Below the pieces are notes generated by a model. It searched no databases, was not told where the DNA came from, and saw nothing but the letters and a program-made list of their open reading frames with translations. This document shows, piece after piece, positions 1 through 11,205 of a stretch of 11,205 nt of DNA. The translations under genes and the position numbers were made by a program. Source of the stretch: a virus (taxonomy: Duplodnaviria > Heunggongvirae > Uroviricota > Caudoviricetes); IMG/VR virus record IMGVR_UViG_2711768052_000003, positions 1 through 11,205 of that record; one strand, 5' to 3'. Position 1 is the first letter of the stretch, and each line of letters starts with the position of its first letter.

Positions 1-21
1 GTAAACCGAGGTTTTGGATAA
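1..21. other. Partial serine-invertase crossover site (gix/hix type), truncated by the window edge
   Basis: Positions 1-21 read GTAAACCGAGGTTTTGGATAA. This contains the half-site GGTTTTGGATAA and matches, as I recall it, the last 21 bp of the 26-bp Mu gixL site TTCCTGTAAACCGAGGTTTTGGATAA. It lies about 55 bp upstream of a Gin-family invertase gene, the usual position of the invertase-proximal site. Confidence 0.55.
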
Positions 22-75
22 TGGCCGTTTCCGGCCTGCATGGCATGATTTGCGCTTTTGGACGGGAGATTCAGC

Positions 76-675
76 GTGCTGATTGGCTATGTAAGGGTAT
101 CAACAAATGACCAGAATACAGACTTGCAACGAAACGCTCTTGTTTGTGCAGGATGCGAACAAATATTTGAAGATAAATTAAGCGGGACAAAGACAGACCG
201 ACCGGGATTAAAACGCGCTTTAAAGCGCCTTCAAAAAGGTGACACGCTGGTTGTCTGGAAACTGGATCGCCTCGGGCGAAGCATGAAACATCTGATTTCT
301 CTCGTCGGGGAACTACGGGAGCGAGGGATTAATTTTCGCAGTCTGACCGACAGCATAGATACATCTTCTCCAATGGGGCGTTTTTTCTTCCACGTGATGG
401 GTGCCCTGGCTGAAATGGAACGTGAATTAATTGTTGAACGTACACTGGCCGGACTGGCGGCAGCGCGCGCACGGGGGCGCACAGGCGGACGTCGACCGAA
501 GCTGACAAAAGAACAGCATGAGCAAATAGCAAGGCTAATCAAAAACGGGCACGACAGAAAACAACTGGCAATAATTTACGGCATTGGCACATCGACGATT
601 TATCGTTATCACCCTGTAGGCGATATACAGACTGAAGAAACAACCGGGCAGACTCAGGAAAATGAAAACCGCTAA
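76..675 (+). CDS. Site-specific serine DNA invertase, Gin/Pin/Hin/Cin family
   Basis: The translation MLIGYVRVSTNDQNTDLQRNAL...VVWKLDRLGRS...GINFRSLTDSIDTSS.MGRFFFHVMGALAEMERELI has the catalytic Ser at position 9, the resolvase/invertase core and a C-terminal HTH (IYGIGTSTIYRY). GGGAGA at 64-69 is a plausible RBS for GTG at 76. The track ORF begins at TTG 58, which I consider less likely. Confidence 0.9.
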   Translation: MLIGYVRVSTNDQNTDLQRNALVCAGCEQIFEDKLSGTKTDRPGLKRALKRLQKGDTLVVWKLDRLGRSMKHLISLVGELRERGINFRSLTDSIDTSSPMGRFFFHVMGALAEMERELIVERTLAGLAAARARGRTGGRRPKLTKEQHEQIARLIKNGHDRKQLAIIYGIGTSTIYRYHPVGDIQTEETTGQTQENENR

Positions 676-699
676 TCTGACCATTAGCGGTTTTTGTGT
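664..699. terminator. Bidirectional rho-independent terminator between the convergent invertase and gpU genes
   Basis: A 9-bp stem pairs ACCGCTAAT (668-676) with ATTAGCGGT (683-691) around the loop CTGACC. TTTTGTGT follows on the plus strand and an A-run (664-667) precedes it, giving a U-tract for the minus-strand transcript. It overlaps the invertase stop (673-675) and sits 5 bp from the gpU stop (704-706). Confidence 0.5.
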
Positions 700-703
700 A
701 AAA

Positions 704-1192
704 TCAGAACAGCCCTTTAACTGAACTGGCCGCGCTGTTAAGAGATGATGTCACCTTATCTTTGAAGCCGGACAGCATATCACTGAACGATGAGGATTGC
801 AGGCGCTCCCGCAAATCCTCATCACAGCGTTCAAGGGTCAGTGAAAATTCTATCTTTTTCGCCTTACCGTAGCGATCAAACTCGGAACGGGTCGTATTCG
901 TTTCAGTCAGCACATACATGCCGTAAATCTGCCCGACGCCATCAATCAGAGGCCAGGGTCGTCCTGTATACGCCTGCGTGGTCAGCAGCGACAGCGATAC
1001 TTCGCCACCTGTAATTTCAGGATAAAGCACACCAGAAAGAACGATGCGATCATCTCCTGCACCGATATACTGCCAGCTTGCTGAACGGTTAACGCGTTCA
1101 TTTTTCACATGCCGCCAGCTTTTGTTTTGCTGTAACTGCTGATGCGGCAGCGTGCGCAGCTCAAAAACAAACATGCCGTAGATCATCATCAT
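704..1192 (-). CDS. U: P2 gpU-like tail protein (tail terminator/completion)
   Basis: The translation MMMIYGMFVFELRTLPHQQL...WRH...VLSGVLYPEITGG...WPLIDGVGQIYGMYV fits the P2 gpU family pattern as I recall it. GAGGAG lies 8 nt upstream of ATG at 1192; the track start at 1198 would leave only a 2-nt spacer. Confidence 0.8.
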   Translation of the reverse strand: MMMIYGMFVFELRTLPHQQLQQNKSWRHVKNERVNRSASWQYIGAGDDRIVLSGVLYPEITGGEVSLSLLTTQAYTGRPWPLIDGVGQIYGMYVLTETNTTRSEFDRYGKAKKIEFSLTLERCDEDLRERLQSSSFSDMLSGFKDKVTSSLNSAASSVKGLF

Positions 1193-1204
1193 GGCCATGA
1201 CTCC

Positions 1205-4048
1205 TCAATCTTTATCGTAAAAACTGCCACGCCCGGCACGGGCGCGCCGTTCCATTTCTGCCCTGACCATTTCACCTACCAGTTTCGCAAGTTCGCGGGG
1301 ATTCTGCGTAACAACGTTATGCAGATGAACATGAATTTCACCGCCAAATCCGGAGGCAACCGGCTCCCGATTACGGGAAGCTGCAGGAACTGATGCCACT
1401 GGCGATCGTATGGCCTCCGCCACCGGGCGGGAGCTGGCCGCAACAACAGGGACCAGCGCCGGAGGCAGCGGAGCCGGGACCACGGGTGTGATATTAATTG
1501 CGGGGGCAGGCTTACTGACCTGCGCAATCTTCCGCTCCTGCCACTCCCCACGAACGGCAAGTGCGCGGGGCAGGTTCTTAAAGACAATATCGCCGGGGCC
1601 AATGCGTTTTTTCGTCTCATCAACCAGCTTACCTGTGTTATCAGCAATTTTGCTGAGTCTGCGCAGCGTACCGGTATTGCTGTCTGTGAGCGGTTTATTG
1701 TCTTTGGGGTTATCACCTCCGGTACCATTGCCATTTTCCACAGGCTTCGGCGGATTGATTTTCGCCAGGTCCCCCTGAAGCAAGGCAACCTTGTCCTGAA
1801 GAATGGCCGCACGCTGTGCGTCTTCGATTTTCTTGCGCGCCCTTTCCGCTTCATCCGGAAGGACGCCAAGTTTTTCAAGTATCCACGCCAGCGTATCCAG
1901 CAGCATTTTTGCAGGTGTCAGAACAAGCTGTAACGCACCGCCAAGAACGTTACCGAATATCTCGCCAGCACTGGTACATTTATCCAGCGTTTCCTTGCTG
2001 GACTCCATCGGTGACAGCAGCGATTTAAACCAGTTAAACACCTGGCTGATCCCGCTCCCGATTGCGTCAAAAACAGGACCAAACCGTTCAAAAGTTTCGC
2101 GCAACGGGGTCAGCCTTTCCATAATCCCGCTGAACACCCCGGCAAAAAATGCCCTGATGGGATCCCAGTATTTCCAGATAAGAACGGCAGCTCCGGCAAG
2201 CGCAGCCACGATAAGACCAACCGGACTGAACAACGCCCCGATAGCGCCTCCCAGCAAAGAAACGGACCCCGTCACCATTCCCCATAGTGCTGGCAGGACC
2301 CTGACAGCATTCATTGATCCGGTCAGGAGAGAAAAACCAAGACGCAGTTTTGCCAGCGGACCAGCAAGCACACCAATAGCCAGCGACAACGAGCCAACCG
2401 TTGCAGTCATTGCCAGCAACGCACCGCCTGCTATCAGTAGCTGGCGCGTCAGTGCCGGATGGGCCTGCGCCAGCGCCGTCACCCTTGATACCACCCGCGT
2501 GAGCCACTGCGTGACAGAACGCAGCGAACCGTCAATCAGATCTGCAATGCGGATGCGCAACCCTTCCCATGCACTGCCGAGTGATTTCAGATCGCCGTCA
2601 AGGTTGTTGGCCATAACCTTTGCTGTGCGTTCAGCCTCACCGCGCGCGCCTTCAAGTTCTTTTCTCAGTTTGGGTAAGGAACCGTCACCCGCTGCATCAA
2701 CGAGCGCCATAAACGATGTGAAAGCCTCTTCTCCGGCAATGTCCTTAAAGAACGATACCCGGTCAACTTCCCCGTATTTGCGGGTGGCTTTATAAAGGTC
2801 GGCCAGCACATCCTCCATCGGGCGCATTTTGCCCCCGGCATCCGAGACGGACACGCCCAGCTCTTTCAGAGCTTCTGCCGCCGCCTTTGGCGGTGATGCC
2901 AGACGAGCCAGGCTGGCACGCATTGCCGTCCCGGCATCACTCCCTCTGATGCCCATATTCGCCAGCACGCCAGCCATCGCTGCGGCCTGCTCCAGCGATA
3001 TTCCCAGCTTCCCCGCCACCGGACCTGCATATTTCATGGTTTCGCCCAGTGCGCGAAGGTCAGTGTTGGTACGGGTAAACGCTGCGGTGAGTGTGTCACC
3101 GACCCGGTCCATCTGGTCAGCAGAAAGGCCGAACTGCGTCAGGATATTTGAGCCAATATCTGCCGTCTCGCCGAGATCCATACCGCCAGCCGTTGCCATG
3201 CTCAGCACGCCGGGAAGCGCAGCCTGAATGGCCTGCGGAGTGAAGCCAGCCATTGCAAGAAATGCCTGTCCACTGGCGGCATCGCCTGCGGTGAACTGCG
3301 TTTCAGAGCCAAGTTTTAACGCCTGCTCGCGCAGCGCTTTAAACTGCGGGCTGTTCTGGTCGATTCGCGTCAGTGCCTGAACGCGGGACATCTCTTTGCC
3401 GAACCCGATCGCAGGCTGCAAAAAACGCCCGGCAGCATAGCCGCCCGCCGCTGCCGCACCAATTGCCAGCGCACCACCTGTTTTCAGTTTTTCCGCTGTT
3501 TCCTGCGCGCGCGAATACCGCTCACGCGCCCGCGTTACACGCGCAAGCGCCTGCCGTTCGCGTTCAAGCTGGTTGTTGTATTGTTCGGTGCGTCTGATGG
3601 CCTGCTGGATGGTGTTATCGCTGCCTGTCAGGGAAATGCCGTGGCGTTTCAGCTCTCCGCCAAGCTCCCGCATTTTCTGAATTTCCCGTGTGCGCGATTC
3701 ATTCAGGCGTTCAAGCCGGGTGCTTAACTGCTGCATCAGCTTTTGTTGTTTTTCGCTGAGCACTGTACCCGTGCGTTGTAACTGATTAAGGGCGTTAAGC
3801 TGGCGTCGTGCTTTCACGATACCCGCATCCGCTTTACTGACAGCGTCGCGGGCGCGCTCAAATGAACGCGCCTGACGCTCGAGATTTTTGATCGCCCCCT
3901 GCGTTCGCTGGATGGAGTCACCAAACTGCCCCATCAGGCGGCGTGCGTTTTCGGCAGGTCGGGTCAGCCTGTCAACGGCGCTGAAAGCGACCCGGATATC
4001 AAGAGTCTTCATTGTCTGCATTCCCGCTGCGAAGTGCCGCCCGCTCAC
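1205..4048 (-). CDS. T: Tail tape measure protein (P2 gpT-like)
   Basis: A 947-aa ORF with an Ala/Gly/Leu/Arg-rich, coiled-coil-like N-terminal half (repeated ERxRxA, QQL motifs) and a central hydrophobic segment sits between the E/E' chaperone genes and gpU. The start is uncertain: GTG at 4048, or ATG at 4021 or 4012. Confidence 0.8.
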   Translation of the reverse strand: MSGRHFAAGMQTMKTLDIRVAFSAVDRLTRPAENARRLMGQFGDSIQRTQGAIKNLERQARSFERARDAVSKADAGIVKARRQLNALNQLQRTGTVLSEKQQKLMQQLSTRLERLNESRTREIQKMRELGGELKRHGISLTGSDNTIQQAIRRTEQYNNQLERERQALARVTRARERYSRAQETAEKLKTGGALAIGAAAAGGYAAGRFLQPAIGFGKEMSRVQALTRIDQNSPQFKALREQALKLGSETQFTAGDAASGQAFLAMAGFTPQAIQAALPGVLSMATAGGMDLGETADIGSNILTQFGLSADQMDRVGDTLTAAFTRTNTDLRALGETMKYAGPVAGKLGISLEQAAAMAGVLANMGIRGSDAGTAMRASLARLASPPKAAAEALKELGVSVSDAGGKMRPMEDVLADLYKATRKYGEVDRVSFFKDIAGEEAFTSFMALVDAAGDGSLPKLRKELEGARGEAERTAKVMANNLDGDLKSLGSAWEGLRIRIADLIDGSLRSVTQWLTRVVSRVTALAQAHPALTRQLLIAGGALLAMTATVGSLSLAIGVLAGPLAKLRLGFSLLTGSMNAVRVLPALWGMVTGSVSLLGGAIGALFSPVGLIVAALAGAAVLIWKYWDPIRAFFAGVFSGIMERLTPLRETFERFGPVFDAIGSGISQVFNWFKSLLSPMESSKETLDKCTSAGEIFGNVLGGALQLVLTPAKMLLDTLAWILEKLGVLPDEAERARKKIEDAQRAAILQDKVALLQGDLAKINPPKPVENGNGTGGDNPKDNKPLTDSNTGTLRRLSKIADNTGKLVDETKKRIGPGDIVFKNLPRALAVRGEWQERKIAQVSKPAPAINITPVVPAPLPPALVPVVAASSRPVAEAIRSPVASVPAASRNREPVASGFGGEIHVHLHNVVTQNPRELAKLVGEMVRAEMERRARAGRGSFYDKD

Positions 4049-4528
4049 GCCAGCTAACCACTTCGCCGGGCGTCATCATGAAGATTTCGGCGGGCGACCA
4101 GTTAAAAATAACGGCAATATCTGCCACAAAGTCTTCTATGTGCTCAAAGCACACAACCGTGATCAGGCTTCCGTCGCCTGTTCGTTCTTCCCGCCAGAGT
4201 CCGCACCGCTCAAAAAATTTACGGCAACCACACATAACTGAATAAAGTCACGGGATGCCATTTTTTTGATCGTCACTTCATCCAGTCGCGGTGATGTCAC
4301 GCGTGACAGCAGCGTAAACATGGATTCCGCTTTCAGACTCAGCACATCAGACAGCGACAAATCTCGCAGAGATCCAGCCTGCTCAATAGCCCCGGTGATC
4401 TCCACATACGTGATTTTTTCGCCGCTTCGCTCAATTGGTTGGGTAAGTTTTACGCCACGCTCACTGGTTTCTTTCACAGTGTCAGTAACTACCGTGTTTT
4501 CGGTATCGATGTTTTTCGTCTCTTTCAT
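3999..4528 (-). CDS. E+E' fusion chaperone made by programmed -1 frameshift (inferred)
   Basis: The minus-strand slippery heptamer TTTTTTG (plus coordinates 4217-4211) lies inside E. The -1 frame stays open from there to 3999 (track ORF 3999-4235 is in the -1 frame relative to E) and overlaps the T start, as in the P2 E/E' and lambda G/GT arrangements. Confidence 0.55.
4163..4528 (-). CDS. E: Tail assembly chaperone gpE-like (short product)
   Basis: A 121-aa ORF lies between FII and T, the position of P2 E. AAAGGAG sits 7 nt upstream of ATG at 4528. A TTTTTTG slippery heptamer lies 18 codons before its stop. Confidence 0.75.
   Translation of the reverse strand: MKETKNIDTENTVVTDTVKETSERGVKLTQPIERSGEKITYVEITGAIEQAGSLRDLSLSDVLSLKAESMFTLLSRVTSPRLDEVTIKKMASRDFIQLCVVAVNFLSGADSGGKNEQATEA
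4211..4217 (-). other. T6G slippery heptamer for the E to E' -1 ribosomal frameshift
   Basis: The plus strand reads CAAAAAA at 4211-4217, which is TTTTTTG on the coding (minus) strand. Frame arithmetic places the downstream open frame at -1. Confidence 0.55.
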
Positions 4529-4582
4529 CAGGAAACTCCTTTCAGTCAGAGGCGACGCACTGCGCCGCCTGCATATTACTTA

Positions 4583-5095
4583 TCAGCCAAGCCCAAGCGC
4601 GGAACGGATGCGATCGGGCACAATGTCCTTGCCGTCCTTCCGGTAAATGAAGTTCAGCAGGTCAATCTCCCACAACGGGCGATCGTTAACACTCAGCTTG
4701 TAGTAGGTGTTTTTAATGGCATAAGTGTGTGATGTGGCTTCGCCCTGTTTGGCTTCCCCCATATCAATTTCCGTCACACGTCCGCGCATTTCGACTTCAT
4801 ACAGGTCGCTTTCTGCATCGGTGTAGTATTCACCCGCAAAACGCAGCAGTGTGCCGTCAATCGTGCCGCCATACTTAAGGAACAGCTCACGAACTGCGCC
4901 CCCCATGACAAAGCTCGCATCAAGCGCTGAGTCGTCCAGGCCGAGATCAATACTTACCGCCCCCATCATGCCACCACCCCGGTAGCTGTCGGTTTTGCGC
5001 GTCAGCTTAGGCAAAGTGACGGACGTCACCTTACCCACTTCGTTTTCACCATCCACAAACAGCGTAAAAAAGCGAAGATGTTTTGGCACAGCCAT
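4583..5095 (-). CDS. FII: Tail tube protein (P2 gpFII-like)
   Basis: A 170-aa ORF, MAVPKHLRFF...VTLPKLTRK...YRGGGM...IDLGLDD...LRFAGEY...VEMRGR...EIDMGE, has the size and motifs of the FII tube family. GGGAGG RBS precedes it, and its ATG overlaps the FI stop as TGATG (plus 5093-5097). Confidence 0.9.
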   Translation of the reverse strand: MAVPKHLRFFTLFVDGENEVGKVTSVTLPKLTRKTDSYRGGGMMGAVSIDLGLDDSALDASFVMGGAVRELFLKYGGTIDGTLLRFAGEYYTDAESDLYEVEMRGRVTEIDMGEAKQGEATSHTYAIKNTYYKLSVNDRPLWEIDLLNFIYRKDGKDIVPDRIRSALGLG

Positions 5096-6279
5096 CAGGC
5101 ACCTCCCAGCACCGCAAATGCGGGTTCAAAGTATTCATCAGTAAACGTCTGGTAAAGCTCCATGTCTTCCAGTGGCGGAACGGGCGTATATTTGTAGCGA
5201 ATACGCACACGCCCCTGACGTAAATCCGTGGTGCTGTTATCCACCACGTCATACCAGCACTCCGCGCCAATCAGTTTCCCGGCAGTCACCAGTGAATCCA
5301 GTTTTGCCCTGATGGCGCTGATAACATCCTTCACGTTCGCAGGCGTCAGTGGACTGTCGATGGTTTCAAACTGCGCTTCCGCAATTGAATCAGCCAGCAC
5401 CTGTGCGGTTCGGGTATACACCTCAAAAATGTAGGCGTTCGTTTCCGGTGTGCGGTTGCCCCAGAAGCGGAACCCGTTGCGACGAATAATGGTCGTGATT
5501 TCTTTGTTGTTGAGGCTGTTGGCATCGCTGTCTTCGGCCTGCAACGACCAGAACACATGCCTCGACATCCCCAGCACATTTTTAACCGGAACGTTGGACA
5601 GCGATTTGTGCCAGCCCTGCTCATGGTCAATGTACGCACGAAGGCCGCACGCATAAGCAGGCGCGGGGAACGTTTCGTTTTCGCCACTTTTCGGGTTGTA
5701 GGCGATGAAGTCCGGCCATAAGAGCATCACTTCACGTTCGTTGAATTTCTGGCGGTAGGTAATCGCTTCAGCCATCGTGTTACAGCCGTGACATGAGGCA
5801 TACACAAATGCGCGCAGTTTACCCGCAATCACGCACAGGGATTTTGTCACCGCCTCCGTGTCCAGCTCCGGCGCGGCCAGAATACGCGGACGGTATCCGA
5901 TGCTTTCATCCTGCTCTGCAACAAGCAGCGCATACATCCCCGTATAGCTGCCGTCATCCTCAGAACCACCGATAACCAGTTGATCCTGCGTCTTTTCGTC
6001 TTCTTCTTTGTGTTCAGCCACGCGAACGACGATCACCTTTGTGCTCACCTGGTCTGCGATGGCCTTAAGCGCACGATAAAGCGTCCCCGTTGTTCCGCAT
6101 TTTCCCAGCACGTCATTGACGCGGGTCAGCAGTGTGGGCTTGTTCAGCGGGAACAGCTTCGCGTCCGCATCATCCGCCGTTGCCACGATACCGATAACGC
6201 TGGAATCAACATCGTTAATCGCTGTTACCAGGTCGGTATTTTCCGTAACACGGGCACCATGAAAACGAGTTTCACTCAT
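5095..6279 (-). CDS. FI: Contractile tail sheath protein (P2 gpFI-like)
   Basis: A 394-aa ORF has motifs that match P2 FI as I recall it: FPLNKP, LRAFVYAS, WPDF, EQGWHKSLSNV, IRRNGFRFWGNRT, YTRTAQV and YKYTPVPPLE. AAGGGG RBS lies 8 nt upstream of ATG at 6279. Confidence 0.9.
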   Translation of the reverse strand: MSETRFHGARVTENTDLVTAINDVDSSVIGIVATADDADAKLFPLNKPTLLTRVNDVLGKCGTTGTLYRALKAIADQVSTKVIVVRVAEHKEEDEKTQDQLVIGGSEDDGSYTGMYALLVAEQDESIGYRPRILAAPELDTEAVTKSLCVIAGKLRAFVYASCHGCNTMAEAITYRQKFNEREVMLLWPDFIAYNPKSGENETFPAPAYACGLRAYIDHEQGWHKSLSNVPVKNVLGMSRHVFWSLQAEDSDANSLNNKEITTIIRRNGFRFWGNRTPETNAYIFEVYTRTAQVLADSIAEAQFETIDSPLTPANVKDVISAIRAKLDSLVTAGKLIGAECWYDVVDNSTTDLRQGRVRIRYKYTPVPPLEDMELYQTFTDEYFEPAFAVLGGA

Positions 6280-6436: not shown

Positions 6437-7546
6437 ATGACCGACACCACCATGCAATTGCTCAGTCAGGGCACAGACCCCGTGAAAATGCCGGATTTTG
6501 ATATTCTCGCCGAGGGTAAAACGCTGTCCGGCGTGGCAGAACGCCTGATGAGCCTGTCACTGACCGACAACCGGGGATTTGAGGCGGACCAGCTCACCAT
6601 CACGCTGGATGATGCCGATGGCCAGTTGCAGCTACCGCCACGGGGCGCGCGTCTGACGGTTCTCATTGGCTGGAAAGGGGAACCGCTGACAGAAAAAGGC
6701 ACTTACATTGTTGATGAAATCGCTCACGAAGGACCGCCGGACAGGCTGACTGTTTCAGCCAGAAGCGCAGATTTTCGGGATGAATTTAACGTTAAACGTG
6801 AGGTGTCCTGGCATGATGTGACCGTTGAGCGTGTGGTATCCGCCATCGCTCATCGGTATGGTCTGAAACCGCAAATCAGCGAAATGCTGATGGATATCGA
6901 AATCGACCACGCCGACCAGACCGAAGAAAGCGACATGTCCTTCCTTACGCGCATGGCGGAAATGCTGGGCGCAATCACCACGGTAAAAAGCGGTAATCTG
7001 TTATTCATCATGCCCGGAGGTGGCGTGAACGCGCAGGGCCAGCCGTTGCCCTCGTTCGCCATCACACGCAGCAGCGGCGATCGCCATCAGTTCCGCATTG
7101 CTGACCGCGAGGCGTATACGGGTGTACGCGCCTACTGGCTTGATCTTAATTACGGGAAAAAGAAAAAAGTCAGCGTGAAACGCCGCAAACCGCCAAAACC
7201 CAAAAAGGAGAAAAGCAGCAGCCGCGAAGGTGACTATATGGAAGGTGCGGAAGGCAACGTATTTGTGTTACGCAAGACTTATCAGAACGAGCAGGCAGCA
7301 AGACGCGCAGCGGCGGCAAAGTGGCAGCAGCTACAACGCGGAGCCGCATCATTTTCCATCACGCTGGCACGTGGACGCGCAGAACTCTACCCCGAAATGC
7401 ATGGCACGGTAACAGGATTTAAAAGCGAGATTGATAATCAGGACTGGATTATTGCAAAAGCCGAGCACACCATTGATAACAGCGGCTTTACCACGCAGCT
7501 TGAGCTTGAGGCAAAAATCCCGGAATGGATAGCAGAAACAGAGTGA
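6437..7546 (+). CDS. D: P2 gpD-like tail/baseplate hub protein (late control gene D family)
   Basis: The translation MTDTTMQLL...SLSLTDNRGFEADQLTITLDDADG...RSADFR...SWHD...FLTRMAE...ITRSSGDRHQFRIADREAYTGV...KKKK...EGDYMEGAEGNVF...QRGAASFSITLARGRAELYPE...FTTQLELEA agrees closely with my recollection of P2 gpD. GGGAGGGA RBS lies at 6425-6432. The track ORF extends to 6305 but has no RBS-supported start there. Confidence 0.85.
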   Translation: MTDTTMQLLSQGTDPVKMPDFDILAEGKTLSGVAERLMSLSLTDNRGFEADQLTITLDDADGQLQLPPRGARLTVLIGWKGEPLTEKGTYIVDEIAHEGPPDRLTVSARSADFRDEFNVKREVSWHDVTVERVVSAIAHRYGLKPQISEMLMDIEIDHADQTEESDMSFLTRMAEMLGAITTVKSGNLLFIMPGGGVNAQGQPLPSFAITRSSGDRHQFRIADREAYTGVRAYWLDLNYGKKKKVSVKRRKPPKPKKEKSSSREGDYMEGAEGNVFVLRKTYQNEQAARRAAAAKWQQLQRGAASFSITLARGRAELYPEMHGTVTGFKSEIDNQDWIIAKAEHTIDNSGFTTQLELEAKIPEWIAETE

Positions 7547-7934
7547 GCAATTTTGATACATTAGATTAAACATGGGCGCAACACTTACGACACAGAGTAA
7601 ACCTGATCTGCCAGTCACTTCTGCACCAAGAGCGAAAATTTATGACAGCGCTATGTGTTTATCTCCCCGAAAAGCTCAGTCAAATAGTAATTTGTCAAAT
7701 CCCCACTCAGTATCAATAGAGATAGTTGACCGAGTGTGCTCAAAGCCATACCTGCCACGATGAGCTTTGCATAACAGACTTGTTTTTTTAGGTGATTTTC
7801 GTTATAAATTTTCAGCGTTGCTTAGATGTTATGTGTTTATGCTCAATATGCAAATTTTGAGTTTTTTGTGGCTATATTATAACATTAATAGCAACATCTC
7901 TATGATTGCTTTATTTAAATGGATGAATTTGAAA

Positions 7935-10037
7935 ATGAGAGCATATCATAATGACCAACCTATACTAGGCGGTCAAAATGATCCAGACTTACTAAATAGA
8001 CTTACCTTTGCAAATAATTTGGCAAATATTTTACTATTAAATAACGACGATGATTGTTTCACTGTATCTATAGAGGCTGAGTGGGGATATGGTAAAACGT
8101 CAGTCATAAATCTTATAAAAAATGCCTTAAATGAAAAGGACTCCTTACCCATTATAATAGAATATAATCCATGGTTGGCTGGCCAACCTGAATCCTTGAT
8201 TCAAGATTTTTTATTGCAGTTTTCTTCACAACTAAATATTAAAGACAAATCAAAAGTTGCATTAAAAGTATCAAAAGAGCTAATTGCATACTCTAGCCTC
8301 TTTAGTGCTGCTAAACTTATCCCTGGAGCAGAACCATGGGCATCTATCATAGAAAAATCTCTTTCAAGATTTGGACATGCTACTAAAAAAATAGCTGAGT
8401 TAAAAAAACTTGATCTTTTAGATAGAAAAAAACAAGTGGCTAATGCGATAAAAAAAATAAAACATCCTATAATTGTAATAATTGATGACATTGATCGTTT
8501 AACACCCTCTGAGGCTTTTCAAGTTTTACGGTTAGTCAAAGCTGTTGCGAATTTCTCAGGCACTTCTTTTTTACTTGCATTTGATCCTAATTACCTAATT
8601 TCTGTGCTTGATAAAAATAACATTATAAATCCGTCAGAATATATTAATAAGATTGTTCAACTTCGAGTTTCACTTCCCGTAATTTCAGAAAGAGGACTGA
8701 ATGAAATCGCAAATTCAGAGCTTGAAAAACTAGGTGATAGTTTTTTAACTGATAAATTTGAAAAAGATCAAGAAAGATTAGATTGGATTTACCATAATTA
8801 TTTCAAGCAATTAATTAATAATCCAAGAGAGTTGAAAAGGTTTTTCAACCACTTGAGATTTACTTTAGAGCAAATTAAAGGTCAGGTGTGTTCTTCAGAT
8901 CTTTTTTCTTTATCTCTAATCGCAACCAAATCAAATTTAATTTATGAGCATATAAAGAATACTCCTGAAGCGTACATTGGGAATAGATTAACCATCAATA
9001 ATTTGTTAATGAATAAACATCAAGATATTATAAAGCATTATAGCCATGAACGATGCAATAAACTAAATATTTTTTCTCAACGAGAACGTACATTGATGCA
9101 GGGGCTATTAGAGTATATTTTCCCTCTTCTACGCCCCAATCAATCTTATCCTTATGATGTATCTGATTCAGATGCAGCAGGAAGAATTTCTGCCCCCCAA
9201 AGACTTCATATTGCCCTTCATTTTAAAACTCCAGTAGGATATATTTCCGATCATGACATTCTTCTTTTCATCGAAGGGAAAATTAATAGAGAAAAATTCC
9301 TTGAGGATGTGTTATCTCAAAATGCCGAGGAAAGATTTTTCGAAATGATGAATATTTATACAGACGCTTGTTGTAAAGTTGATAGTTTTAATATATTAAC
9401 GTGCATTTATGATAGATTTCTTTTCTCTCAAGAGTTAAAATCTTCATTAGAAAAAAACTATGGTCTCATTAGAGAAGATTCTTATAGAAGGATGTATTGG
9501 CTCACTGATAAAATTATATCTGAAAGTAGTGAGCAATATGAGCTAATAAAAAAAATTATTGGTCGATATGAGAATGCGCCACTTGGAGCAGAAGTACTAT
9601 ACAACGTACGAAACTCAAGTAATATACAGATTAATAAAGATCAGATTGTTGAACTTGAGAATGTCTTCAAAGAAACAGCTACTATTGCTTTAAATAAAAA
9701 AATATTTTTTGACTATCATCTAGAATCAAATATATTTTTCGAATTAAAGAGAATCTCTGTTGAATTCACATCAGAATTTCTTGCTTCCATCTTATCAGAA
9801 GATGGCATAATTAGATTGTGTGAAATTATTGGTGAAACTGGTAGAGATTCAACGAATGGCCCTTATGTTATTTTTGACGAACATTATTTTGGGGAAATAC
9901 TTGATGTAGATGAGGTTAGAAATAAAGCTAAAAACATAGATATTTCAAAGCATCCGACTCGCATTCAAGCTGTACTTAAGAGCATTGCAGATGGAAAAAA
10001 ATATTATTTAAGAGATGCAACAATTAGCTTAAAATAG
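7935..10037 (+). CDS. KAP-family P-loop NTPase; candidate anti-phage/exclusion protein
   Basis: Walker A is AEWGYGKTS (8082-8102), followed by the KAP-typical NPW (IIIEYNPW), Walker B IIVIIDDIDRL (8472-8501), LLAFD, and an NPRELKRFFN motif (8820-8849). About 300 C-terminal residues carry no motif I recognise. The gene is strongly AT-rich against GC-rich flanks. The start is ambiguous: in-frame ATGs at 7902, 7923 and 7935, none with a strong SD (GGA 9 nt before 7935); the track ORF begins at TTG 7767. Confidence 0.7.
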   Translation: MRAYHNDQPILGGQNDPDLLNRLTFANNLANILLLNNDDDCFTVSIEAEWGYGKTSVINLIKNALNEKDSLPIIIEYNPWLAGQPESLIQDFLLQFSSQLNIKDKSKVALKVSKELIAYSSLFSAAKLIPGAEPWASIIEKSLSRFGHATKKIAELKKLDLLDRKKQVANAIKKIKHPIIVIIDDIDRLTPSEAFQVLRLVKAVANFSGTSFLLAFDPNYLISVLDKNNIINPSEYINKIVQLRVSLPVISERGLNEIANSELEKLGDSFLTDKFEKDQERLDWIYHNYFKQLINNPRELKRFFNHLRFTLEQIKGQVCSSDLFSLSLIATKSNLIYEHIKNTPEAYIGNRLTINNLLMNKHQDIIKHYSHERCNKLNIFSQRERTLMQGLLEYIFPLLRPNQSYPYDVSDSDAAGRISAPQRLHIALHFKTPVGYISDHDILLFIEGKINREKFLEDVLSQNAEERFFEMMNIYTDACCKVDSFNILTCIYDRFLFSQELKSSLEKNYGLIREDSYRRMYWLTDKIISESSEQYELIKKIIGRYENAPLGAEVLYNVRNSSNIQINKDQIVELENVFKETATIALNKKIFFDYHLESNIFFELKRISVEFTSEFLASILSEDGIIRLCEIIGETGRDSTNGPYVIFDEHYFGEILDVDEVRNKAKNIDISKHPTRIQAVLKSIADGKKYYLRDATISLK

Positions 10038-10262
10038 TGATAACAGGTGATTTATTTTATTATTTGAAGTGATGAAATATACTCTTCACTACATTTAATG
10101 CACTGATTATCAAATAGAGATAGGTGTCGCATGAAAGAGACTATTGATGTGGCACCGGTAGTCTCATTTCCGACATTACTCCAGAAGAGGTGATTCGTTA
10201 TTAATAGATAATTTTAACCACTTCGCTAGACGTATCATTTTTCGTTTGTTGCTCAAAACTCA

Positions 10263-10291
10263 TTGGCAGTTAAAGTCTGAACCAGTACAAC
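10263..10291 (+). promoter_or_regulatory. Putative sigma70-type promoter for ogr
   Basis: TTGGCA (10263-10268), a 17-bp spacer, then TACAAC (10286-10291), about 40 bp upstream of the ogr ATG. This is a by-eye match only. Confidence 0.25.
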
Positions 10292-10328
10292 TTAGAATGG
10301 CACCAACATTACGTTAAGGGAGGTCGCT

Positions 10329-10589
10329 ATGTTCCGTTGTCCGCTTTGTGGCGCATCTGCCCGTATCCGCACCAGTCGTCCGGAAAATGATTCAAACACC
10401 GTGCGGCAAAAGTATTACCAGTGTAACAATCTGGAATGCGGCGTATGCTTCTCAACACTGGAAGCTTTCCATAAATTCACATCGAAACACGCCTCCGGCG
10501 TTCACTCTTCAGAAGGTATCCCGTGGCATGAGCTGCCAGCTTCACACAGGGGAAACAATCAGATGAGTTTGCCTTTGCCTCAGAATTAA
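10329..10589 (+). CDS. ogr: Ogr/Delta-family zinc-finger late transcription activator
   Basis: The N-terminus MFRCPLCGASARIRTSR...YYQCNNLECGVCFSTLE has the CxxC...CxxxxC arrangement and resembles P2 Ogr as I recall it (MFHCPLC...RTSR...YHQC.N..C...F). AAGGGAGG RBS lies at 10316-10323. Confidence 0.85.
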   Translation: MFRCPLCGASARIRTSRPENDSNTVRQKYYQCNNLECGVCFSTLEAFHKFTSKHASGVHSSEGIPWHELPASHRGNNQMSLPLPQN

Positions 10590-10649: not shown

Positions 10650-10862
10650 ATGGTCGGAGGGAATACCCGAAGGCCAGATGTGGAAAGGCCCCGGAAAACA
10701 TCTCTGTTTAACCGAGGCCCTAACCGCATTACCTTGACAAGTGAAAGGTTAGCGCCTCTCCGGAAAAGGAGCAAGTGCTATGTCGCAAAAATCGCTTACG
10801 GCCATCACGTTCTGTGTGACGGCAATCCTCATCATCTGGATGTTGCACGGTTCGCTGTGTGA
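10650..10862 (+). CDS. Possible mok-like overlapping leader ORF of the hok locus
   Basis: A 70-codon frame from ATG 10650 overlaps the 5' two-thirds of the hok-like ORF in another frame and ends inside it, as mok does in hok/sok loci. It has no strong SD, and the track ORF begins at TTG 10599. Confidence 0.3.
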   Translation: MVGGNTRRPDVERPRKTSLFNRGPNRITLTSERLAPLRKRSKCYVAKIAYGHHVLCDGNPHHLDVARFAV

Positions 10863-10920
10863 AATACGGATGAGCTTCTGGGGAGCGGAGTTTGCGGCGT
10901 TCTTACAGTGTAAGCAGTAA
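10780..10920 (+). CDS. Hok/Gef-family type I toxin (small membrane peptide)
   Basis: A 46-aa ORF, MSQKSLTAITFCVTAILIIWMLHGSLCEIRMSFWGAEFAAFLQCKQ, has an N-terminal hydrophobic helix and the SLCEIR...E.AAF motif, which aligns without gaps to Hok (…[21 protein letters not shown]…) and HokA as I recall them. AAAGGAG RBS at 10765-10771. It is below the length cutoff of the supplied ORF track. Confidence 0.7.
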   Translation: MSQKSLTAITFCVTAILIIWMLHGSLCEIRMSFWGAEFAAFLQCKQ

Positions 10921-11041: not shown

Positions 11042-11205
11042 TGGTGCCCTCACCGACTTGAAACAGTGATCAGACTATAAGACAAAGCCCGCAATGTAGC
11101 GGGCTTACTCCCCTCACCCTACACTGAATGTGGACACACAGTGGAACGAAGAGGCATAAGATATTATAAATCAATCAGTTATTGAAAGAAAAAAGGCCGC
11201 AGAGC

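Follow-up and report, generated by a model that had tools for sequence, protein, structure and literature searches.

A gix-type crossover site and a Gin/Hin-type invertase gene mark the probable fixed end of an invertible tail-fibre cassette in a P88-like Escherichia coli prophage

Introduction

DNA inversion systems of the Din family, such as Hin/hix of Salmonella, Gin/gix of phage Mu, Cin/cix of phage P1 and Pin of e14, are alike in possessing a small serine invertase and 26-bp crossover sites. Their invertase genes also contain an enhancer, some 100 bp away from the proximal site, in which two Fis sites lie 48 bp apart. What is inverted differs among them: Hin flips a promoter, whereas a switch of the type considered here flips fibre genes. 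The best match to the latter is the G segment of Mu, which is bounded by gixL and gixR and served by Gin and the sis enhancer. Among P2-like phages, Escherichia phage P88, Xuanwuvirus P884B11 and Citrobacter phage Shae_phiSM have an annotated DNA invertase; the words inversion and invert are absent from the P88 paper (PMC5285337). Inversion in the P2-like prophages of EPEC E2348/69 has been demonstrated by sequencing and PCR (PMC4272514).

Here we analyse a stretch of 11,205 nt, referred to as the window, which is the entire contig CXXR01000060.1 of assembly GCA_001268205.1. An earlier note, made from the letters of this stretch, had recognized the 3' portion of a gix-type site at positions 1-21 and proposed that a switchable tail-fibre segment lies immediately to the left. 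We confirm the observation and find support for the interpretation. Window 1-675 very probably constitutes the fixed right-hand end of an invertible tail-fibre cassette of the Mu G-segment type in a P88-like (Xuanwuvirus, P2-like) E. coli prophage. As such, it is a textbook Din-family tail-fibre switch of an already known kind, in a prophage family that is extremely common.

Results

The first 21 nt of the window read GTAAACCGAGGTTTTGGATAA. In the Mu record (AF083977.1; L003 4996-5021), the right G-segment boundary is the 26-bp gixR, TTCCTGTAAACCGAGGTTTTGGATAA; the same 26 nt, in exact reverse complement, form the left boundary. Comparison with this published sequence gave an exact match, with window 1-21 being identical to gixR positions 6-26 at 21/21 positions. 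In the complete site, a 2-bp core separates two inverted half-sites of 12 bp, and 21 of the 26 nt are inside the window. The first five nucleotides, located off the contig, are TTCCT in a near-clone (L021, described below) and complete a 26/26 match to Mu gixR. We thus assign window 1-21 as the invertase-proximal (right) gix-type site, from its identity to Mu gixR and the full 26-mer of the near-clone. When up to three mismatches were allowed, the gix motif occurred once in the window and in none of 200 dinucleotide-preserving shuffles. Staggered cleavage and strand exchange are expected at the central GA dinucleotide (window 8-9), where the G-segment boundary is drawn in the Mu record; the P1 crossover is annotated at the equivalent centre of cixL, although the central dinucleotide is TT in P1 cix and GA/TC here. 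The site is directly upstream of the invertase gene, as the earlier note had stated, with 54 nt separating it from the GTG start as in Mu. The parallel that the note drew with P1 was inexact, as the proximal cixL overlaps the 3' end of cin in the P1 record (AF234172.1; L010 1251-1281) rather than preceding the invertase gene as the site of Mu and the window does.

Exact-pattern scans with the window's first 36-47 nt revealed no match in GTDB species representatives or JGI metagenomes. In IMG/VR, the single record matched was L005, which is not identical to the window. L005 (1-1100, IMGVR_UViG_3300029458_000135) is a deleted prophage remnant with an orphan gixR beside an intact invertase gene; attL occupies its positions 1-198, and an unrelated ORF for a 146-aa coiled-coil/TM protein occupies 209-649 on the minus strand.

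The gene next to the site (76-675, plus strand) is predicted by Pfam and by alignment with PDB structures of Gin (4m6f) and Hin (1hcr) to encode a Gin-family serine DNA invertase of 199 aa with a GTG start and catalytic Ser9. Its domains are Resolvase (PF00239, 1.4e-50) and HTH_7 (PF02796, 4e-13). In a program-made ORF list, the gene begins at an upstream TTG (58-675). Because of the alignment with the annotated ribosome-binding site and start of Mu gin, we take the homologous gene to be 76-675, with GTG at 76, and not 58-675. The predicted ribosome-binding site, GGGAGA (64-69, plus strand), is the one aligned with that annotated for Mu gin. Gin (4m6f) was matched at 3e-100, and there is a single substitution over residues 1-113 (K39, against R39 of Gin). 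The protein departs from Gin from about residue 114 onwards, and its DNA-binding domain aligns better with that of Hin (1hcr) at many positions. This boundary in the protein agrees with the end of DNA similarity to Mu gin near nt 455-464. Judged by these alignments, the gene is a Gin/Hin-type mosaic, with a DNA-binding domain closest to that of Salmonella Hin. The E-helix and the DNA-binding domain, encoded at window positions of about 406-675, are more like those of Hin than of Gin. The protein finishes with a 16-aa acidic C-terminal extension, ending ...IQTEETTGQTQENENR.

Residues K47/R48/K51 and Q151/R154/L155 of Hin are uniquely conserved in Fis/enhancer-dependent invertases (McLean et al., PMC3798978). 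The invertase of the window, which is one residue shorter than Hin at the N-terminus and is numbered accordingly, possesses the equivalents K46/R47/K50 and Q150/R153/L154. An identical protein was found in 13,761 blocks of the assembly collection. Its RefSeq label is only 'recombinase family protein'. A hairpin with a 12-bp stem and T runs on both strands (665-694, from a terminator scan) is situated between the convergent invertase and gpU genes and is likely a bidirectional terminator.

A Fis-dependent enhancer early in the invertase coding sequence had been anticipated by the earlier note, and homology bears this out. In the P1 record, the enhancer of Cin-mediated inversion is annotated at cin coding nt 19-90. 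As no gaps are needed to align the N-termini of Cin, Gin and the window protein, the P1 enhancer maps codon-for-codon to window 94-165 (coding nt 19-90 of the invertase gene), which we predict to be a Fis-dependent recombinational enhancer. This stretch is identical to Mu gin at 70/72 positions, with differences at 124 and 156, and it has conserved blocks in common with P1 cin. A candidate proximal Fis site, TATCAACAAATGACC (98-112, centre 105), agrees with GNNYRWWWWWYRNNC at 13/15 positions. It is conserved among the window, Mu and P1 at 14/15 positions, and its centre is about 96 bp from the gix centre. A candidate distal Fis site, GTGCAGGATGCGAAC (146-160, centre 153), is proposed from homology and spacing only; its G...C ends and core are conserved with Mu and P1, and it scored under the 13/15 cut-off of the consensus scan. 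The two candidate centres are 48 bp apart. We tentatively equate 98-112 with the proximal and 146-160 with the distal Fis site of hin. The geometry of the candidates agrees with that of the hin enhancer, in which two Fis sites have 47 bp between their centres and lie about 100 bp from hixL (PMC3798978).

Scanning for Fis sites, as the earlier note had in mind, yielded candidates, but the scan alone is non-discriminating, with about 1.9% of all window positions scoring at least 13/15. A second Fis-like pair with 48-bp spacing (centres 116 and 164) was also obtained. The pair at 105 and 153 was preferred, being within the stretch equivalent to the P1 enhancer and conserved in Mu and P1. Taken together, homology and geometry support an enhancer in window 94-165, to which Fis is predicted to bind.

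A near-clone provides a view to the left of the window. Contig JAPMCG010000018.1 of GCA_027979435.1 (L021) carries the window at 1538-12742; over the 11,205 nt, the two differ by 5 substitutions and are free of indels. This contig begins inside the segment, so that at least 1.5 kb of the segment is covered and the left site is outside. The switchable fibre C-terminus and chaperone that the earlier note had placed left of the window are seen there in inverted orientation. A silent tail-fibre C-terminal ORF (L021 672-1583, minus strand) passes through the site in the same frame, reading IIQNLGLQE, and a Caudo_TAP fibre-assembly chaperone gene (L021 141-668, minus strand) is just to its left. Positions 78-1700 of L021 are 99.9% identical to the complete genomes CT30 (L009) and TUM9812 (L006), both of which possess an inverted partner site 2.9 kb upstream, in the tail-fibre gene. 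The first 77 nt of L021 have no contiguous match in any complete E. coli genome, and the whole window is matched at more than 96.8% identity by none of the complete E. coli genomes.

An inverted partner a few kb upstream was likewise an expectation of the earlier note, and such a partner was found in relatives, at a distance of 1.9-3.0 kb and inside the tail-fibre gene (L001, L002, L004, L006-L009 and L011-L020). It was present in 14/14 complete relatives fetched that carry the cassette. The loci with a partner were those of Shae_phiSM, UTAK-3 and strain 100181, four genomes sharing the window's first 120 nt, and ten loci with the identical invertase protein, all ten of which possess both sites. 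Partner sites in relatives have the same GA/TC core, and the outer half-sites differ at 2/12 positions (left GGTATTCGATAA, right GGTTTTGGATAA). Between the sites, the order is fibre CDS, Caudo_TAP, inverted Caudo_TAP and inverted fibre fragment. In the source strain, a partner site would be expected at a similar place; a perfect inverted partner inside the fibre gene would read TTATCCAAAACC.

The site at the window's edge could instead be an orphan. The source prophage would then be deleted and its left partner lost, with the invertase and the 21-nt site being relics or acting only in trans. That such loci exist is illustrated by L005, which shares the window's first 47 nt exactly and retains of the segment only the last ~270 nt, adjacent to the site, joined to the unrelated ORF and attL. 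By contrast, the window keeps a complete, uninterrupted tail module, and both sites are retained wherever the identical invertase was inspected, in the ten loci above. As the upstream genes of the near-clone, namely the silent fibre C-terminus and the chaperone gene, are intact, we consider an orphan site very unlikely here and a cassette border with an inverted partner by far the better reading.

The segment occurs in both orientations in nature. The flanks of STK77-E (L007) and CT30 (L009) are collinear and 99.9% identical, and 3065-6025 (2.96 kb) is 99.76% identical in reverse orientation. Chaperone WP_063119431.1 is encoded on opposite strands in two pairs of genomes. Two junction types contiguous with the invertase flank were found in 136 and 228 complete E. 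coli genomes, respectively. Within the sites, the change between orientation variants is confined to the 5 nt inward of the central dinucleotide, which swap sides (TTCCA/TTCCT, or TTCTC/TTCCT in another lineage), and the outer half-sites stay fixed, as predicted for exchange at the central dinucleotide. In RefSeq, the silent inverted fibre C-terminus is called a pseudogene ('incomplete; missing N-terminus'; L007/L008 5051-6025 and L002 11300-12010).

These orientations might also be old, inherited states of a frozen switch, in which the chimeric Gin/Hin invertase or the asymmetric half-sites do not recombine. The DNA-binding domain is indeed unlike that of Gin, and the outer half-sites of relatives do differ between left and right. 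However, L007 and L009 are 99.8-99.9% identical in segment and flanks alike apart from the inversion, which implies that the inversion was recent. Both junction types are frequent, and the catalytic and Fis-contact residues of the invertase are intact. Furthermore, Din-family invertases tolerate half-site variation and cross-complement. A frozen switch is therefore very improbable in our estimation, and the invertase of the source strain is probably active.

The ends of the contig deserve a comment. Its left end is 21 nt of the gix site, and its right end is 21 nt (window 11185-11205) into a 25-nt att core, AAAGAAAAAAGGCCGCAGAGCGGCC, which is common to attL and attR at the btuC-ihfA site and lies within the ihfA terminator. 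That each end breaks off after 21 nt of a repeated recombination sequence is suggestive of an assembly graph built on 21-mers. There are two ways in which such a graph could have branched at 1-21. One is a second copy elsewhere ending at position 21, for example a perfect Mu-like partner. The other is a mixture of cells that differ in the base preceding position 1, exactly the place of the T/A difference between the L007 and L009 orientation states. Either cause is consistent with a paired or active site, for which the contig end is circumstantial evidence. As the first base of the contig is also the first that the two orientation states have in common, we tentatively raise a more specific reading, which we find possible but rather doubtful: the contig stops at gix because the culture held both orientations, and the chimeric invertase would then be active in the lysogen. 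If this is true, the ending of contigs at this 21-mer in thousands of E. coli draft assemblies could provide a population-scale readout of tail-fibre switching. For the right end, a mixture arising from excision (attP/attR) was considered and rejected, as the last 4 nt of the att core are missing from the contig.

Beyond the invertase gene, the window is, by its predicted gene content, a P2-type tail module of the P88-like (Xuanwuvirus) kind. Pfam identified gpU, tape measure, gpE, tube FII, sheath FI, gpD and ogr, and the genus Xuanwuvirus (Peduoviridae) is from the taxonomy line of OR565851.1. On the minus strand are gpU (704-1198), tape measure (1205-4012), tube (4583-5095) and sheath (5095-6279); on the plus strand are gpD (6437-7546), a KAP NTPase gene (7902-10037) and ogr (10329-10589). 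The tape-measure protein has one private substitution. In P2, the FI-FII-E-T-U block, gpD, ogr and the fibre genes are collinear. Here, the FI-FII-E-T-U block (704-6279, minus strand) is opposite in strand to gpD/ogr (6437-10589, plus strand) and to the fibre genes. Near the right end of the prophage, a hok-like gene (10780-10920, plus strand) may encode a 46-aa Hok/Gef-type toxin (NCBIfam HokA-like, 2e-8, below cut-off), and an Rfam scan of the window returned 0 families, sok included.

The KAP-family P-loop NTPase (711 aa) matches the PADLOC PifA model in its N-terminal half (9e-65), and the exact protein was found in only 5 contigs. It occupies a slot between gpD and ogr that is empty in some relatives and contains a GmrSD-domain gene or HxsB/HxsC radical SAM genes in others. 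Because of this variation, the slot is a candidate for variable cargo or for defence genes. The cassette itself is not universal in the family. L027, L029 and L032 have an identical gpD and the same tail module without the invertase cassette; their interval from fibre/chaperone to gpU (about 2900-4250) holds a 190-aa unknown, a Peptidase_S74 fibre or a glycosyltransferase. As some family members are without it, the invertase cassette is an exchangeable module.

Discussion

Comparison with the Mu G segment reveals how closely the two systems correspond. Apart from the identical crossover site, the first ~455 nt of the window, including the 5' region of the invertase gene, are 92% identical to Mu, and the site, ribosome-binding site and start codon are placed alike. 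The segment order of relatives is likewise S-U followed by inverted U'-S', and much of their segment is 90-94% identical to G. Mu is transposable and has com/mom downstream, whereas the phage of the window is a P2-like myovirus (Peduoviridae, Xuanwuvirus) with gpU and the tape-measure gene at this place. Unlike Mu Gin, the invertase is Hin-like from about residue 114 and its C-terminal tail is 16 aa longer. The left site of relatives differs from that of Mu in its outer half (TTATCGAATACC), and the fibre C-termini are unlike S/S' in their receptor-binding middle.

A resemblance in gene context is also found with P88, P884B11 and Shae_phiSM. Over window 1-1200, these P2-like phages are 96-99% identical in nucleotide sequence, and they have the order of the window family: fibre, chaperone, inverted chaperone and fibre fragment, invertase, gpU and tape measure. 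Their proximal site reads ...GGTTTTAAATAA, 2 nt off that of the window, and they are without the KAP NTPase cargo gene.

From these likenesses, a mechanism can be proposed. Invertase dimers would bind the right site and its inverted partner, which would lie in the tail-fibre gene about 2-3 kb to the left. An invertasome would be assembled by host Fis bound at the enhancer (about 94-165) inside the invertase gene. The segment would then be inverted by cleavage at the central GA, followed by a 180-degree rotation of subunits. Inversion would swap which of two fibre C-termini is joined in frame to the constant N-terminus, each C-terminus carrying its cognate assembly chaperone. The host range of the phage would alternate with the swap of fibre C-termini.

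The finding has little importance beyond correct annotation, as the host-range switch is well understood and widespread in E. coli P2-like prophages. It does matter for annotation, since automated labels such as pseudogene, 'incomplete' or 'recombinase family protein' hide a functional switch in standard records. Contigs of draft assemblies are also prone to end at the cassette or inside it. Consequently, fibre alleles and host-range predictions obtained from short-read assemblies would be orientation-dependent.
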